A stretch of DNA of 64,000 nucleotides from Patescibacteria group bacterium (GTDB lineage Bacteria; Patescibacteriota; Patescibacteriia; UBA1558; UBA10009): assembly GCA_041662565.1 (NCBI GenBank), contig JBAZSE010000001.1, positions 257,084 to 321,083 on the forward strand. The letters are read 5' to 3'. Under the pieces are notes generated by a model. That model was not told the DNA's origin and searched no databases. It saw nothing but the letters and a program-made list of their open reading frames with translations. Position 1 is the first letter of the stretch. Every line of letters begins with the position of its first letter. A program made the position numbers and the translations under genes. Shown piece by piece: positions 2,496 to 30,251 of this stretch.

Positions 2496-2822
2496 CTAGT
2501 CAGTTATAAAACTCCAGCCGGTTGGTATTGGTGTATGTTCAGTAGAAGTTTGAGTCAGTGATGGAATCAGTTGAGCTTCAGAAGCATTGGCTGGTTGAAC
2601 GTTTGAATCAGTTGTTGAAGTTAGTTTTTGGTTTTGCCAGCCAGCGCCATCTTCGGTTATTGGGTTGATGATTGACATCGATGTCCTGCGGTTTAAATTG
2701 TAGGGTACAAAAAACTTCCTCAAATGGAAGTCTTCTTGAGAGATATTATTGTTTGGTAAGTTTATTTCATAACATACCCAAAGAAGGCTTTCATCTGAAA
2801 TGAGACAAAATGTTGGCGCCAA
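2496..2822 (-). CDS. hypothetical protein (Thr/Ser/Gln-rich C-terminus)
   Basis: 108-aa ORF between the TrpR-like and cupin genes on the same strand. No recognisable domain. Confidence 0.25.
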   Translation of the reverse strand: MAPTFCLISDESLLWVCYEINLPNNNISQEDFHLRKFFVPYNLNRRTSMSIINPITEDGAGWQNQKLTSTTDSNVQPANASEAQLIPSLTQTSTEHTPIPTGWSFITD

Positions 2823-2844
2823 TTTTGGTTAAGGTAAATTTGTT

Positions 2845-3123
2845 TCATGGTTTAAGTTTTAAAATTTGATTAAATCCGCCTTGGGGATTTTTTAACATGC
2901 GTGCGCCTCGGGTAATGGTGGCAATGGCTATTTTTAGTTTTTTTGCCACAACTCGCTGTGGCAAACCCTGATGCAATAATTTAACTATACTCAGCCGTCT
3001 TTTAATTTCCGCTAGTTCAGCCGGAGTCAATAAATCCTTTAAAAATATGGCCATAAACTTAGGATCTTTGATTTTGGCCAAAACTTTATTTATTTCCCAA
3101 TCCGTTAAAGTATCTTTTTTCAT
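2845..3123 (-). CDS. TrpR/YerC-YecD family DNA-binding protein
   Basis: 92 aa with the LLTPAELAEIKRRLSIVKLL...IATITRGARML pattern typical of the TrpR-like YerC/YecD family. Confidence 0.7.
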   Translation of the reverse strand: MKKDTLTDWEINKVLAKIKDPKFMAIFLKDLLTPAELAEIKRRLSIVKLLHQGLPQRVVAKKLKIAIATITRGARMLKNPQGGFNQILKLKP

Positions 3124-3131
3124 AATATATA

Positions 3132-3145
3132 TTGTACTAGTACAA
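3132..3145. promoter_or_regulatory. perfect palindrome TTGTACTAGTACAA (trp-operator-like GTACT/AGTAC half sites) at the 5-prime end of the TrpR-like gene
   Basis: 14-bp perfect inverted repeat 9 bp upstream of the minus-strand start codon. A further GTAC half-site lies at 3147-3153. Confidence 0.45.
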
Positions 3146-3297
3146 TAGTACAGTATTGCATAAGTAATGTCAAATAGGGGGCTGTGGATAAGTGTTGAGC
3201 TAAAACAGTGGCAACTTTTAGGAAACGGTAATTGTAGTTAAGATTCTATTATTGAATTTTTAGATATTTTTTGGCTAATATTAGCTAAATTATCTGG

Positions 3298-3326
3298 TTG
3301 AAATATTTAACGACAAATGTTATAAT
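3298..3326 (+). promoter_or_regulatory. sigma70-like promoter (TTGAAA-17-TATAAT) upstream of adk
   Basis: Near-consensus hexamers with 17-bp spacing, 28 bp before the adk start. Confidence 0.5.
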
Positions 3327-3353
3327 GTTGATATTGAATAATCAAGTTTATTT

Positions 3354-3986
3354 ATGAATATTATTATTTTTGGGCCCCAAGGGTCTGGTAAGGGTACGCA
3401 AGCCAACGCCTTATCAACCAAGTTAAACATTCCCCAAATTACTATGGGTGATTTATTGCGCGCCGAAGTTGCCAGTAATTCGGCTTTAGGCGAGCAATTA
3501 AAAGCCATTATGAATCAGGGCAGTTTAGTGCCCAATGAAGTTACGGCCACTTTGTTGGAACACCGGTTAAAAAAAGATGATTGCCAAAATGGTTTTATTT
3601 TGGACGGCTATCCTCGCAATCTTGTTCAGGCCCAAACTTTGGATGCTTTAGTTCACCTGGATACGGCAATGGAAATTTGGATTAGTGATGAGGAAGCTTT
3701 AAGTAGGATCGGCGGGCGCAGAAGCTGCCCCAAGTGCGGTACAATTTTTCATTTAATTACCAATCCGTCAAAAACGGATAATGTTTGCGATAAGTGCGGC
3801 ACCGCCTTGATTATCAGGGAAGATGATAAAGAAGAAGTTATTAAAAAGCGTTTAGCGGTTTATCATGAACAAACCGAACCCTTGGTTGCTTATTATCAAA
3901 CCAAAGGAATTTATTTAAAAATCGATGGCCGGCCTTCTATTGCCGAAGTTAATAAAGAAGTTTTTGCCAAATTAAACATTGCTTAA
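3354..3986 (+). CDS. adk: adenylate kinase (with Cys4 zinc lid)
   Basis: P-loop GPQGSGKGTQ, plus lid CPKCG...CDKCG. Confidence 0.95.
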   Translation: MNIIIFGPQGSGKGTQANALSTKLNIPQITMGDLLRAEVASNSALGEQLKAIMNQGSLVPNEVTATLLEHRLKKDDCQNGFILDGYPRNLVQAQTLDALVHLDTAMEIWISDEEALSRIGGRRSCPKCGTIFHLITNPSKTDNVCDKCGTALIIREDDKEEVIKKRLAVYHEQTEPLVAYYQTKGIYLKIDGRPSIAEVNKEVFAKLNIA

Positions 3987-24903: not shown

Positions 24904-26289
24904 ATGGCTACTAAAAAAAATACTTCTTCCTCAAAGCTTAAAGAGCAAAAGGGGAAAAGCAAAAAAAACGCCGGTAAAAAAGTTTTTAAAAAAAAGGCCA
25001 AAACAATAAAGGCCAAAGCCAAGCCGGCTAAAAAGGCGGATAAAAAAAAGCCCGCGATTTTTAAATCCAAAAAAGCCAAACAACGCATCATTAAAGCCAA
25101 GCCATTTAAAAAACATTACCGCCTGCCGGAAGTTAAGCATAAAAATGTTCAACCCCAGCAGGATGAAACCACAGTTAAGGGCTTGGATTTGGCAGTTGTT
25201 AGGGCCTTGGAAGAAAAAGGCCGTTTTAGAAGTTTTATTACCGAAGAAGAAGTGCTGTATGTTTTTACCGAAGCTGAAGAATATCTGGATCAGTTAGAAG
25301 AATTTTTAGATCGTTTAAACGAAGCCGGCATTCAAATGGTTTCGCGCGAAGGCGGATTTTTGGGTGAAACGGAAAATATTCCCGTAACTCCGGCCAGCAA
25401 AAAAAAGACCCACGAACTTTCGGCTAAGGAATTGTTGGAACTGCAAAAATTGGATCTAACCGATATTTCTTCCGATTCCATTCAGATGTACCTGCGGGAA
25501 ATCGGCAAGGTTCATTTGCTAACTACCGAAGAAGAAGTGCAATTGGCCAAGCGCAAAGAAAAAGGGGATATGGAAGCCAAGAAAAGGTTGGTTGAAGCCA
25601 ACTTGCGTTTGGTGGTATCCATTGCCAAAAAGTTTACTGGCCGCAGTTTAAGTTTGTTGGATTTAATCCAAGAGGGCAATATTGGCTTATTTAGGGCAGT
25701 AGAAAAATTTGATTATCGCAAAGGTTATAAGTTTTCCACTTACGCTACTTGGTGGATCAGGCAAGCTATTACTCGCGCGCTGGCCGATCAATCTAGAACA
25801 ATCCGCATTCCGGTGCACATGGTAGAAACCATTAATCGTTTCCAACAGGCCGAAAGAAGGTTGATTCAGGATTTAGGCAGAGAGCCAATGCCCGAAGAAA
25901 TTGCCGCGGAAATGGGCGAGGAGCTTGACAAAGTCCGCCAAATCATTAAAATATCACAAGAAACCGTTTCGCTGGAAACATCGGTAGGCGAAGATGACGA
26001 AGATTCCACTTTAGGTGATTTTATAGAGGATGAAAAAACCATTTCACCGGATAAGGTTGCGGCTTTGCAATTGTTAAAAGATCATGTTCAGCAGATTATT
26101 TCTGACCTTACCCCCAGAGAGCAAAAGATTTTGGAAATGCGTTTTGGTCTTTTAGACGGTGTAGCCCATACTTTGGAAGAAGTGGGTCAGGAATTTGGCG
26201 TAACCCGCGAGCGCATTAGGCAAATTGAAGCCAAAGCCCTGGAAAGAATTCAGCATAACACAGGCATGCGTAAATTAAGAGATTATTAA
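24904..26289 (+). CDS. rpoD: RNA polymerase sigma factor RpoD with Lys/Ala-rich N-terminal extension
   Basis: Regions 1.2 through 4.2 are recognisable ([10 protein letters not shown], the [16 protein letters not shown] block, and [22 protein letters not shown]). The first ~60 aa are a KKAK-repeat tail. Confidence 0.92.
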
Positions 26290-26462
26290 TTTTATAAAAT
26301 TGTTCATTAAATTGTTGATTTAAAAATCGCCGAGCTCGAAAGGGCGAGGCGAAGAGGAAGAAGTTGATTGAAGCCGGAGTGGCTTCGCGATAAGCGGAGG
26401 CACGGAGGCTGAAAGCAACTTTTGACGATCGGGAGTAGCTCAGTGGTAGAGCAGTTGGCTGT

Positions 26463-27010
26463 GAACACGGTCTTTGCTATAATCAGTTTATGGCTAAAGA
26501 CAAAAGAACCTATCGTGATCGCGCTGAATATCTTAAAAAAGCTGTTGATAAAAGGCGTAAGAGTTTACGTTTAATGGCTGTAAGATATAAAGGCGGCAAG
26601 TGTCAACTTTGCGGATACAAAAAGTGCATTCAAGCATTAGATTTTCATCATTTAGATCCTAAAAAGAAAGATTTTGGAATTTCAGAATCCGGAACAACAA
26701 GATCTTGGATGAAAATTAAAACGGAATTGGATAAATGTCTAATGATTTGTGCTAATTGTCATCGTGAAGTTCATCATGGTAAAACGCAGCTTTTTGCCGT
26801 AAGGCAGATTGAAAAATGAGGTGAACTCGGGGAAGCCTGAAATGGTAATCCCGAGCCAAGCCCTGATCTTGCTTAAGCAAGCGTCGGGGAAGGTGTAGAG
26901 ACTATCCTTAACAGGAGTACCTTGTAATGATTACAAGGGAAGCGCCTCATCTCCTAAAAGTTTTAGGAGAATGATATAGTCCACCCTTTAGAGAAATCTA
27001 GAGACAAGTG
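26463..27010 (+). mobile_element. group I self-splicing intron (~548 nt) carrying an HNH homing-endonuclease ORF
   Basis: The 5-prime exon ends in U and the intron ends in G, as group I splicing requires. R-like (GUAGAGACUAUCC) and S-like (GAUAUAGUCC) elements sit at 26895-26906 and 26973-26982. There is also a CGGGGAAGG P-like element. Confidence 0.55.
26490..26819 (+). CDS. HNH homing endonuclease (intron-encoded)
   Basis: CQLCG...LDFHHLDPKKKD...CANCHREVHHG: the classic HNH His-Asn-His/zinc-finger arrangement. Confidence 0.8.
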   Translation: MAKDKRTYRDRAEYLKKAVDKRRKSLRLMAVRYKGGKCQLCGYKKCIQALDFHHLDPKKKDFGISESGTTRSWMKIKTELDKCLMICANCHREVHHGKTQLFAVRQIEK

Positions 27011-27045
27011 TAACCAATTGGTCGTGGGTTCGAATCCCTCCTCCC

Positions 27046-27115
27046 GAGCCATTAAAAAACCACCAAAGAAATTTGATGGTTTTTTATTATTCCAAGATTA
27101 ACGATATTGAGGGAT
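27046..27115 (+). repeat. 70-bp direct repeat R, copy A (contains a terminator-like hairpin aaccaccaaa/tttgatggtt plus T-run)
   Basis: About 94% identical to 30092-30161. It begins at the GAGCCA 3-prime end of the tRNA. Confidence 0.6.
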
Positions 27116-27272
27116 TCGAACGGGCAGAAGCGAGGCAAGCCCTCAGGGCGCAGATGAGCGTCGACAAAAGCGACCAATCGGAAGCTTTTGGCGCTGCCCA
27201 GGACAACGAGACCCGCAAAGCGGGGCGAGGCGGAAATCTTTACCCGCCTTTGGCTGGCCTCCTCCCGAGCCA
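27111..27272 (+). ncRNA. GC-rich structured element ending in a second copy of the tRNA 3-prime end (GGCCTCCTCCCGAGCCA). Candidate small RNA or att-site remnant. It contains a tmRNA-like GGAUUCGAACGGG motif.
   Basis: About 60% GC in a 37% GC genome. It starts with GAGGGATTCGAACGGG, which resembles the conserved tmRNA 5-prime motif, and ends with a 17-nt match to the tRNA acceptor/CCA end followed by a terminator hairpin. Confidence 0.2.
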
Positions 27273-27360
27273 GTAAAAGTGCATCAACGATTGTTGGTGC
27301 TTTTTTAATAAATAAGCTTTTAAAAACCACAAAAATATGATAACATGTATTTAATAAAAA

Positions 27361-28620
27361 ATGCTTGAACAGGCAAATTGTATGAGAAATGTTTTTATAA
27401 AATTTATCCCTTTTTGGATTTTTCTAATTATCTATAAGCTAGGAGGCAGTTTGCACTATTCCTTAATCTCACCTCTTGGGGAAAGGCTTTTACCTTTATG
27501 GATTGTCGGGCTTTTAATGGGCGGCAGCTCAATTATCCAAATGTTGCTTGATGTTCCGGCAGGTCATTTTTTGGATCGCTTTGGTTATCTTAAACTGTTA
27601 AAACTAACGACTTTTATTTTTCTCTTTGCCGGCATTGCCTTTATTTTTAATTTTACCATTGCCACTTATATTATTAGCCTGATAGCCGCCACTTTCGGTT
27701 GGGTGTTGTTTGGTCCCGGAGTTAACGCCTATATTCTTTCTCAGGCACCTAAAAAAAATTCCGGCACTTTCATCTCCTTTAGGGATATTTTCGGCTCAGC
27801 TGGTGTTTTTCTGGCCAGCGCCGTTTTAGGCCTAGTACTTGCCTTAACTCCGACCACCATAGGAACAATAATATTCGCCATAATGCTGGCGGCACTGGCA
27901 GCGCTTTACTTTAGCCCTCCAGATACCATTTCTGTTCATCATGAACAAAAACTCCCCACACAACATCATTATATAAGAAGAAATTATCCTCATAAACTTT
28001 TGCCTATTTTAAAAAAGCTTAATCCGGCTAGTTCCATGCTTTTGCTAACAGGACTTACTTCTTCTATTTTTTACGGCGTCATCTGGTTTGTAGTGCCTAT
28101 AGTAATTGCCAATAGCGCTAACTCGGGCTTGCTCAGTATCGGTCTAGGTATTTTTGATTTTGCCATAGTAGCGCTTGGATTTCTATTAGGTAAGATGGCG
28201 GACAAAGGCAATAAAAGAACGCTGGTCTTTTTTGGATTGTTATTGTTTGCCGTATCGGGAATTCTGATCGGTTTTAATTTTAACTGGCTGTTCCTGGTTT
28301 TGGGATTTTTAGCTACCACTGGCGACGAAATGGCAAGCATTTCCTTATGGTCATGGTTGCATAGTTTAGATAAAGAACACGCTAATGATGGCCTGCTTTC
28401 CGGCGCCATTAACCTTTTTCAAGATTTGGGCTGGGCCATCGGACCGATTATTTCTGGATTTCTTTTTACCTTGATCGGGCCTTCATGGACTATTATGTTT
28501 TCAGCTGTCTTGTTATTCGCCACTTGGATTGTTTACCAATTTTTAATCAAACAGCACCGCCTGTCTTCAACCGGAATTGATATTCCTAAAAAGCCGCATC
28601 GAGCCAGGCATCATGTGTAA
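27361..28620 (+). CDS. MFS transporter
   Basis: 419 aa, 12 predicted TM helices, and an MFS-like loop motif (GHFLDRFGY). Confidence 0.75.
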   Translation: MLEQANCMRNVFIKFIPFWIFLIIYKLGGSLHYSLISPLGERLLPLWIVGLLMGGSSIIQMLLDVPAGHFLDRFGYLKLLKLTTFIFLFAGIAFIFNFTIATYIISLIAATFGWVLFGPGVNAYILSQAPKKNSGTFISFRDIFGSAGVFLASAVLGLVLALTPTTIGTIIFAIMLAALAALYFSPPDTISVHHEQKLPTQHHYIRRNYPHKLLPILKKLNPASSMLLLTGLTSSIFYGVIWFVVPIVIANSANSGLLSIGLGIFDFAIVALGFLLGKMADKGNKRTLVFFGLLLFAVSGILIGFNFNWLFLVLGFLATTGDEMASISLWSWLHSLDKEHANDGLLSGAINLFQDLGWAIGPIISGFLFTLIGPSWTIMFSAVLLFATWIVYQFLIKQHRLSSTGIDIPKKPHRARHHV

Positions 28621-30091: not shown

Positions 30092-30161
30092 GAGCCATTA
30101 AAAAACCACCAAAGAAATTTGATGGTTTTTTATTATTCCGAGATTAATGATATTAAGGGAT
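30092..30161 (+). repeat. 70-bp direct repeat R, copy B, followed (30186-30205) by a third 20-nt tRNA-3-prime-end mimic GAATCCCTCCTCCCGAGCCA
   Basis: Sequence identity with 27046-27115. The 20-mer is identical to tRNA positions 27032-27051. Confidence 0.6.
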
Positions 30162-30251
30162 GAGAAGTTTACACCTCGGAGGGGTGAATCCCTCCTCCCG
30201 AGCCATCAAAAAACATTAGTGAAAACTAGTGTTTTTTGTTATAATGTTTCT

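Follow-up and report, generated by a model that had tools for sequence, protein, structure and literature searches.

What interrupts the transfer RNA (tRNA) gene at 26429-27051 of this Patescibacteria contig (JBAZSE010000001.1), and which tRNA does the gene encode? We addressed this in the window, by which we mean the whole stretch of 64,000 nucleotides (nt) analysed here, and in related loci from other genomes. We found that the locus is very probably a gene for tRNA-Asn(GUU) into which a self-splicing group I intron of the IA type is inserted between U35 and U36; in the loop of its first helix (P1) the intron carries a gene for an HNH endonuclease, most likely a homing enzyme. The gene and its insert are made up as follows:

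26429-26462, plus strand: tRNA-Asn 5' exon, TCGGGAG-TA-GCTC-AGTGGTA-GAGC-A-GTTGG-CTGT (acceptor strand, D arm, anticodon stem 5' strand, C32 U33 G34 U35)
26463-27010, plus strand: group I intron, 548 nt, inserted at anticodon position 35/36 and preceded by U
27010, plus strand: terminal guanosine of the intron (omega-G), the G right before TAA in 69/69 loci
27011-27051, plus strand: tRNA-Asn 3' exon, TAA-CCAAT-TGGTC-GTGGG-TTCGAAT-CCCTC-CTCCCGA-G-CCA (U36 A37 A38, anticodon stem 3' strand, variable loop, T arm, acceptor strand, discriminator G27048, encoded CCA 27049-51)

Joining the exons in silico gave a 75-nt cloverleaf that ARAGORN called tRNA-Asn(gtt), anticodon GUU. The Asn-type acceptor end (U1, A72, G73) was found in the window and in all related loci (69/69); U1-A72 and G73 are features of bacterial tRNA-Asn rather than of tRNA-Thr. 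In its default mode ARAGORN missed the split gene and reported only tRNA-Lys and tRNA-Ser in the 64-kb window. An earlier reading made from the letters alone (the sequence-only reading) had described both tRNA halves, a joined anticodon loop CUGUUAA typical of tRNA-Asn, 548 intervening nt that start after a U and end in G, and one U-U mismatch in the T stem. The letters, the joined cloverleaf (where the mismatch is U50-U64) and the comparison of junctions below bear out each of these points. That reading had left open whether splicing occurs after U35 or after U33; U35 stands and U33 does not.

The junction was placed with the help of 80 loci that encode relatives of the open reading frame (ORF) in the intron, from one genome per GTDB species. 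In 68 of them the ORF lies within a split tRNA on the same strand, giving 69 loci when the window is counted. All 69 have a 5' exon ending in CTGT and a 3' exon starting with TAA, with a G before it, and the two bases ahead of that G are variable (GT, AT, GC, CT, TC, TT, AC). The rule that the exon ends in U and the intron in G is satisfied by two junctions in the window: U26462/G27010, which gives the loop CUGUUAA (Asn-GUU), and U26460/G27008, which gives CUUGUAA (Thr-UGU). On this comparison the junction is U35/U36 and the gene is tRNA-Asn(GUU), because the G before UAA is invariant (69/69), a covarying P1 pair adjoins the U-G wobble at the splice site (66/69), and homologues have been shown to splice at 35/36 in vitro (PMC13011429).

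The 5' side of the junction is defined by P1 and the hairpin that follows it:

26457-26463, plus strand: P1 5' strand, G30 G31 C32 U33 G34 U35 and intron base +1
26785-26791, plus strand: P1 3' strand, the internal guide sequence, C-GCAGCU, which is also the ORF codons Thr-Gln-Leu
26793-98/26803-08, plus strand: P2 hairpin with a GNRA loop, UUUGCC-GUAA-GGCAGA, 99.7% paired, with compensatory changes in 5/6 pairs

The guide GCAGCU (26786-26791) stands directly 5' of the GNRA-capped P2, and the U35 (U26462)-G26786 wobble marks the 5' splice site as in group I introns. Intron base +1 and the base just 5' of the guide are paired in 66 of the 69 loci, as G-C (49), A-U (13), G-U (3) or U-A (1), a count that was reached by none of 5000 shuffles.

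The rest of the insert folds as a group I core. The sequence-only reading had taken it for a group I intron, and the Rfam covariance model agreed: RF00028 matched with 71.6 bits, above its gathering score of 50 (E 3e-16 for the window as a whole), its full-length match spanning 26723-27003, and a P1-P9 core could be drawn. The R-like and S-like elements expected by that reading to form P7, GTAGAGACTATCC (26896-26908) and GATATAGTCC (26973-26982), do pair in this way. The core elements are:

26816-26823, plus strand: P3 5' strand, AUGAGGUG, holding the ORF stop codon UGA (26817-26819); partner 26943-26950
26826-26893, plus strand: P4-P5-P6 domain, 95-100% paired with many compensatory changes (P4 26826-32/26849-55; P5 26835-37/26844-46; P6 26856-57/26892-93; P6a 26861-64/26886-89; P6b 26868-72/26877-81, the last drawn from the window sequence only)
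26898 and 26900-26904, plus strand: P7 5' strand, the guanosine-binding helix, G-A-GACUA with A26899 bulged; partner 26977-26982
26905-08/26913-16, plus strand: P7.1, 73% paired in a gappy MAFFT alignment, compensatory changes in 3/4 pairs
26920-27/26931-38, plus strand: P7.2, 68% paired in the same gappy alignment, compensatory changes in 8/8 pairs
26943-26950, plus strand: P3 3' strand, CGCCUCAU; P3 is 88.5% paired, with compensatory changes in 6/8 pairs
26951-58/26962-69, plus strand: P8 hairpin, 82% paired, compensatory changes in 8/8 pairs
26976-26982, plus strand: end of J8/7 and P7 3' strand, A-UAGUCC, invariant
26986-92/26997-27003, plus strand: P9 hairpin with a GAAA loop, 85% paired, compensatory changes in 5/6 pairs

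Covariation was scored on a MAFFT alignment of 51 loci, with shuffled columns and slid partners as controls. In the core helices 88.5% of cells were paired, against 68.0% in column shuffles and 34-43% when partners were slid by 1-3 columns, and 47 of the 63 core pairs showed compensatory changes on both sides. The six P7 pairs were all invariant (51/51). P3-P9, the P3/P7 pseudoknot and the P7 guanosine pocket were all present, and every core helix is intact in the window. As P7.1 and P7.2 lie between P7 and the P3 3' strand, the intron appears to be IA-like and not IC3; tRNA 35/36 introns are also classed as IA in PMC13011429. A permissive Rfam scan of the flanks (26280-27370) returned the intron alone, other matches being far below their gathering scores. 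The Rfam alignment wrongly put the P1/P2 model positions inside the ORF (26723-26812), whereas the P1 3' strand and P2 in fact occupy 26785-26808; the model coordinates alone would shift the intron 5' end by ~260 nt. In four related loci (L024, L038, L050, L070) the introns are 630-716 nt long, with extra sequence inside P4-P6 or elsewhere in the 3' part.

The loop of P1 is occupied by the ORF:

26490-26819, plus strand: ORF for a putative HNH homing endonuclease, 109 residues, in the P1 loop (~320 nt)

The identification of the product as an HNH endonuclease, already made in the sequence-only reading, holds on several grounds. The product matched PHROG 2255 (E 1e-30). Among 38 aligned homologues, H53, H54 and H95 and C38, C41 and C87 were invariant and N89 and C90 were found in at least 90%, which gives the beta-beta-alpha-metal His...Asn...His residues and the CxxC...CxxC zinc site of HNH enzymes; mean column identity was 67%. 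An AlphaFold model (predicted local distance difference test score, pLDDT, 84) matched only HNH domains in a fold search, all weakly (best E 0.13; Cap5, McrA, phage GVE2 HNH, Gme nicking enzyme). Homologues fall into 316 database clusters, of which the 120 listed are mostly 63-87% identical, and there is one identical entry, which NCBI assigns to a Patescibacteria group bacterium.

The coding sequence and the ribozyme overlap. The last ~11 codons run through the P1 3' strand, P2 and J2/3 into P3, and the nearly invariant C-terminal Thr-Gln-Leu (TQL), coded ACG-CAG-CUU, is the guide sequence itself. All intron-borne ORFs (69/69) have GCAGC no more than 36 nt downstream of the last catalytic His, and none of the free-standing relatives does (0/6), their C-termini being different (...TKI, ...AKI, ...VKK); this stretch of the protein is therefore dictated by the RNA.

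We propose the following course of events. In the precursor, C32-U35, together with G30-G31 in the window, would pair with GCAGCU (26786-26791) to form P1, with the U35-G wobble at the splice site. An external guanosine would attack after U35, G27010 would then enter the P7 pocket, and the exons would join to give the loop CUGUUAA. Guanosine-dependent self-splicing of this intron is predicted; homologous introns splice precisely at 35/36 in vitro. The HNH enzyme would most likely nick or cut an uninterrupted tRNA-Asn gene near the anticodon, and repair would copy the intron in. Its activity and target are inferred; free-standing relatives beside tRNA-Asn in bacteria and phages point to tRNA-Asn DNA as the target, and homing would account for the recurrence of the element at one position of this tRNA gene in several phyla.

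Several observations weigh against this picture. P1 is short, and the four of its pairs that face the invariant C32-U35 (CUGU) cannot covary. Positions 5-6 of the internal guide sequence were paired with anticodon-stem positions 31/30 in 46/69 and 59/69 loci, no better than in shuffles; P1 beyond CUGU/GCAG is therefore likely to be lineage-dependent. For P10, visual inspection of UAACC against the bases 5' of the guide gave only 1-4 scattered pairs, none of them convincing. On the protein side, the Pfam HNH domain (PF01844) scored 21.1 bits, just under the cutoff of 21.4, and the PHROG 2255 match covers only 92-177 of 211, the N-terminal ~90 residues of the phage relatives being absent. DNA recognition by a protein of 109 residues may thus be weak or dependent on a partner. 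On the tRNA side, there is the U50-U64 mismatch in the T stem, which is common to the closest relatives (L082 and L083), and the search for tRNA genes covered the 64-kb window only, so a second intact tRNA-Asn outside it would have escaped.

These protein features leave some room for an intron that splices but whose ORF is no longer an active homing endonuclease, being instead a relic or having a different function, for example as a splicing aid or as a nickase of foreign DNA. The small size of the product, the missing N-terminal domain and the Pfam score would fit such a loss, and searches of the PDB by sequence and by fold for a close structural relative returned only marginal or weak generic HNH matches. 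We nevertheless consider it unlikely. The conservation of the 38 homologues, with their catalytic and zinc residues invariant or nearly so, is unlike that of a decaying gene, related stretches recur at the same tRNA site in several phyla (at least 569 among species representatives), and free-standing copies that are equally short adjoin tRNA-Asn genes.

It is still less probable that the gene is dead, with a nonfunctional intron or tRNA and another, uninterrupted tRNA-Asn serving the cell. The T-stem mismatch and the limit of the tRNA search to 64 kb of the genome leave this some place, and the neighbourhood holds further partial copies of the tRNA 3' end, which suggest past rearrangement. Against it, all core helices in the window and the ORF are intact, the family is under strong purifying and compensatory evolution, and the exons are identical in two further assemblies (L082, L083), and so conserved. 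Moreover, interrupted and uninterrupted copies for one anticodon rarely occur in the same genome (PMC13011429).

Finally, a tRNA-Thr(UGU) gene whose intron is shifted by two bases in the 5' direction (33/34; 26461-27008) is what ARAGORN calls at the locus in intron mode (option -i; tRNA-Thr(tgt) i(33,548)), and U26460 and G27008 would also obey the U...G rule, with a drawable 12-bp hairpin setting U26460 in a U-G wobble, but the variation of the junction across the 69 loci effectively rules it out, as its terminal-G position is A, C or U in many of them (...TATGTAA, ...ACTGTAA, ...CTCGTAA), its hairpin is not conserved in relatives, and U1-A72 with G73 is generally associated with bacterial tRNA-Asn. 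The identical miscall, with splicing at 35/36 sequenced, is documented in PMC13011429. The 12-bp hairpin (26455-26497) was also dropped as an alternative P1 with U26460 at the splice site; besides being unconserved, it has its 3' strand taken by a conserved leader hairpin.

The class to which the tRNA-Asn(GUU) intron belongs, HNH-bearing members included, is already published (2020, 2025-26). Nakagawa et al. (bioRxiv 2025; mSystems 2026, PMC13011429) examined 95 complete Patescibacteria genomes and found group I introns at 35/36 in 15 tRNA-Asn(GUU) and 3 tRNA-Asp genes, for which ARAGORN and tFind often report Thr(UGU) or Ala with the insertion at 33/34. In vitro self-splicing at 35/36 was precise and was abolished by changing the terminal G to C. 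Nearly all of the 35/36 introns were of subgroup IA, and four tRNA-Asn introns carried HNH (PF01844) genes. According to the same paper, the class was catalogued as "Asn.4Ug" by Williams in 2020 (bioRxiv 10.1101/2020.01.27.920355; tFind). The window falls within the class of Nakagawa et al., with its insertion at 35/36 of tRNA-Asn and its Patescibacteria host. It is like those introns in tRNA, insertion point, phylum, IA-type core, Thr(UGU) miscall at 33/34 and HNH (PF01844) gene, and nothing essential differs. The remark of the sequence-only reading that this tRNA is not commonly reported as intron-containing is therefore outdated. A term search of PMC13011429 found no description of an ORF in the P1 loop, of an overlap of guide and coding sequence, or of free-standing relatives. 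What the present analysis apparently adds is thus the P1-loop ORF with its TQL-coded guide, the wide occurrence of the HNH-bearing form, and the free-standing relatives that flank tRNA-Asn in bacteria and in phage tRNA arrays. There is also a practical side: tRNA finders overlook the gene at default settings and read it as tRNA-Thr when they allow for introns. The genome thus seems to be without tRNA-Asn, which distorts completeness estimates of small Patescibacteria genomes, as PMC13011429 already states.

Other known systems resemble the tRNA-Asn intron in part. The classical IC3 introns (Anabaena/Nostoc tRNA-Leu at 34/35, Azoarcus tRNA-Ile, Agrobacterium tRNA-Arg at 36/37) likewise self-splice after a U of the anticodon loop, and part of their P1 is formed by the anticodon stem-loop. 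They are ~200-250 nt long and have no ORF and no P7.1/P7.2, whereas the window intron is IA-like, 548 nt long and ORF-bearing; the comparison drawn with them in the sequence-only reading therefore does not hold. The cyanobacterial tRNA-fMet group I intron, reportedly described with an endonuclease of its own by Bonocora and Shub in 2001, also sits in the anticodon loop, and its endonuclease targets the anticodon region of the tRNA gene that harbours it. It differs in tRNA, position (33/34), phylum and endonuclease family, its enzyme belonging to the PD-(D/E)XK family (PMC13011429). T4 td/I-TevI shares an IA-type intron with an internal endonuclease gene, and differs in its GIY-YIG enzyme, in the loop that holds the ORF, in its protein-coding host gene and in being of phage origin. 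Free-standing endonucleases are known from phage tRNA clusters (T4 SegB; T5 F-TflI/II/IV; PMC2330249). They resemble the relatives of the window enzyme that stand free within phage tRNA arrays, mostly beside tRNA-Asn; the window HNH gene, unlike them, is inside an intron, and SegB is a GIY-YIG enzyme.

A pattern scan of species representatives gave at least 600 stretches, at least 569 of them encoding relatives of the ORF. HNH-bearing tRNA-Asn introns were found in loci labelled Acidobacteriota/Pyrinomonadaceae/Blastocatellia (L014-16, L021, L026, L031), Omnitrophota (L028, L033, L079) and Elusimicrobiales (L076) and in a complete WOR-3 chromosome (L068, CP070664.1), and Deltaproteobacteria and Bacteroidetes labels also occur (L071, L057 in the non-Patescibacteria list). 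These host labels are bin labels of metagenome-assembled genomes and can be wrong; the Acidobacteriota loci share a distinct exon sequence, and one of them is on a 241-kb contig. The HNH-bearing form thus appears to be common (at least 569 matches) and to extend beyond Patescibacteria, contrary to PMC13011429, where IA introns at 35/36 bearing a homing endonuclease gene were seen only in Patescibacteria and transfer was held to be probably infrequent. If this is true, the published view of a rare element restricted to Patescibacteria would give way to one of a common, cross-phylum element.

Free-standing relatives were found both in bacteria and in phages:

L019:1093-1809, L046:932-1818, L060:1267-2271, L061:1023-1791, L062:1474-1963: free-standing bacterial copies, without the C-terminal TQL/GCAGC motif
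L084:1501-1860, L085:1059-1752, L086:661-1249, L087:558-1249, L088:559-1252, L089:437-1061: phage loci with an HNH gene (54-69% identical) directly beside tRNA-Asn within a tRNA array

Among the bacterial copies, the HNH gene and a tRNA-Asn with an ORF-less intron share a strand in L060 and L061, in L019 and L046 the HNH gene adjoins such a tRNA-Asn, and in L062 it lies 73 nt upstream of an uninterrupted tRNA-Asn. HNH relatives are encoded in 471 phage records, and a blastn search of 50,697 phage records with the ribozyme core gave no match. Few phage loci were sampled: eight homologues with at least 53% identity and three with at most 51%. Six of the eight directly abut tRNA-Asn (Vibrio phage VH1_2019, Klebsiella phages Muenster and phiKp_21, Escherichia phage WPEC5, Bacillus phages BCU4 and Bastille). 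The homologue of phage Anthony is in an array containing tRNA-Asn and that of Lak-B1 is not, and the three more distant ones are in tRNA arrays beside other tRNAs. The host phages are unrelated (KVP40-like Vibrio phages, Alcyoneusvirus jumbo phages, an Escherichia jumbo phage, Bacillus Herelleviridae).

The relatives in bacteria and phages look like successive stages of intron capture, all of them still extant. A free-standing HNH gene would first stand beside an uninterrupted tRNA-Asn (L062, phages), then beside a tRNA-Asn with an ORF-less intron (L019, L046, L060, L061), and would finally enter the intron, where its C-terminus would be recoded to supply the guide sequence. The HNH clade may accordingly consist of homing endonucleases specialised on tRNA-Asn that move between phage tRNA arrays and bacterial chromosomes, the window intron being the end product of a capture in the P1 loop of an ORF-less IA intron. 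This is a plausible scenario that we put forward tentatively. In collaborative homing, a free-standing enzyme and an ORF-less intron that converge on one site can merge (PMC3984707), and the tRNA-Asn series, although few loci were sampled, would fit this route. If true, it would be a natural series for the collaborative-homing route to mobile introns, and it could document how a mobile intron is assembled and how genes flow between phages and bacteria.

Some details of the phage records were noted in passing. The tRNA-Asn(gtt) that ARAGORN finds in WPEC5 (L087:558-642) is unannotated in the public record, and the HNH ORF of VH1_2019 (L084:1501-1767) has no annotated feature there. In Muenster (L085:1059-1142) and WPEC5 the tRNA-Asn(gtt) genes measure 84-85 nt and have a long variable arm, which is unusual for tRNA-Asn.

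We also asked how the ORF of the window intron might be expressed. Two elements lie at its 5' end:

26455-26483, plus strand: sigma-70-like candidate promoter, TTGGCT (in the anticodon stem), 17 nt, TATAAT with an upstream TG; 10/12
26470-26501, plus strand: leader hairpin in the P1 loop, minimum free energy -13.5 kcal/mol, with the AUG (26490-26492) in its 3' strand

The start codon could be placed for 41 relatives. Their leaders were more stable than shuffled sequences (mean z -3.3; z<-2 in 35/41), and the AUG was fully paired in 22 of the 41, against 27% expected. The candidate -10 element (TGcTATAAT) is part of the hairpin's 5' strand and stops 6 nt short of the ATG of the ORF; a TAYAMT box was found 4-10 nt before the ATG in 24/41 related loci. 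In the precursor, a hairpin over the AUG would keep the ORF untranslated and let the ribozyme fold, and the internal -10-like promoter would give a nearly leaderless ORF messenger RNA without the masking strand. The proposal is modelled on T4 td/I-TevI (reportedly Gott et al. 1988), where RNA structure prevents translation of the endonuclease gene in the precursor and the gene is expressed apart from its host gene. The evidence for such a model here is modest, and part of it tells the other way. A promoter scan of the 1.2-kb region found 2 promoter-like sites where shuffles predict 1.9. Opposite the G of the AUG, 22 loci have U and 13 have C, and the TATAAT-like sequence may be no more than a by-product of the hairpin, through pairing with UAUG. 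A near-universal U opposite the G of the AUG had been considered as an argument for the promoter and was dropped on this count of 22 U to 13 C.

The split gene is preceded by dnaG and rpoD and followed by a gene for a major facilitator superfamily (MFS) transporter. Directly behind the tRNA is a terminator-like element:

27053-27086, plus strand: inverted repeat with 15-nt arms, then a T run

The tRNA-Asn 3' end (15-20 nt) is present in three direct copies (27037-27051, 27258-27272, 30186-30205), each followed by its own terminator hairpin. In addition, the 73 nt from GAGCCA through the terminator (27046-27118) are repeated 3 kb downstream at 30092-30164 with ~95% identity, and between the repeats lie the genes for the MFS transporter, an ATPase-like and a STAS-like protein. 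The arrangement resembles an att-type duplication left by integration into the tRNA 3' end, although no integrase is present.

Two GC-rich segments (27119-27257 and 26325-26428; 54-62% GC in a 40% GC genome) flank the tRNA, and neither gave an Rfam match. In the downstream segment there are inverted copies of two parts of the tRNA, the T arm (27109-21) and the anticodon-stem/variable-loop segment (27171-81). A reading of its 139 nt (27119-27257) as a structured RNA or as a piece of a permuted transfer-messenger RNA was dropped, with no support from Rfam or ARAGORN.

The closest relative, L082, is without the tRNA 3'-end repeats. In this locus (2800-3830, compared with 26200-27100 of the window) the exons are identical and the HNH protein is 87% identical, but the flanking genes differ completely, DUF5671 and Gmad2 taking the place of dnaG-rpoD. 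Either the tRNA locus or what surrounds it has therefore moved between close relatives.

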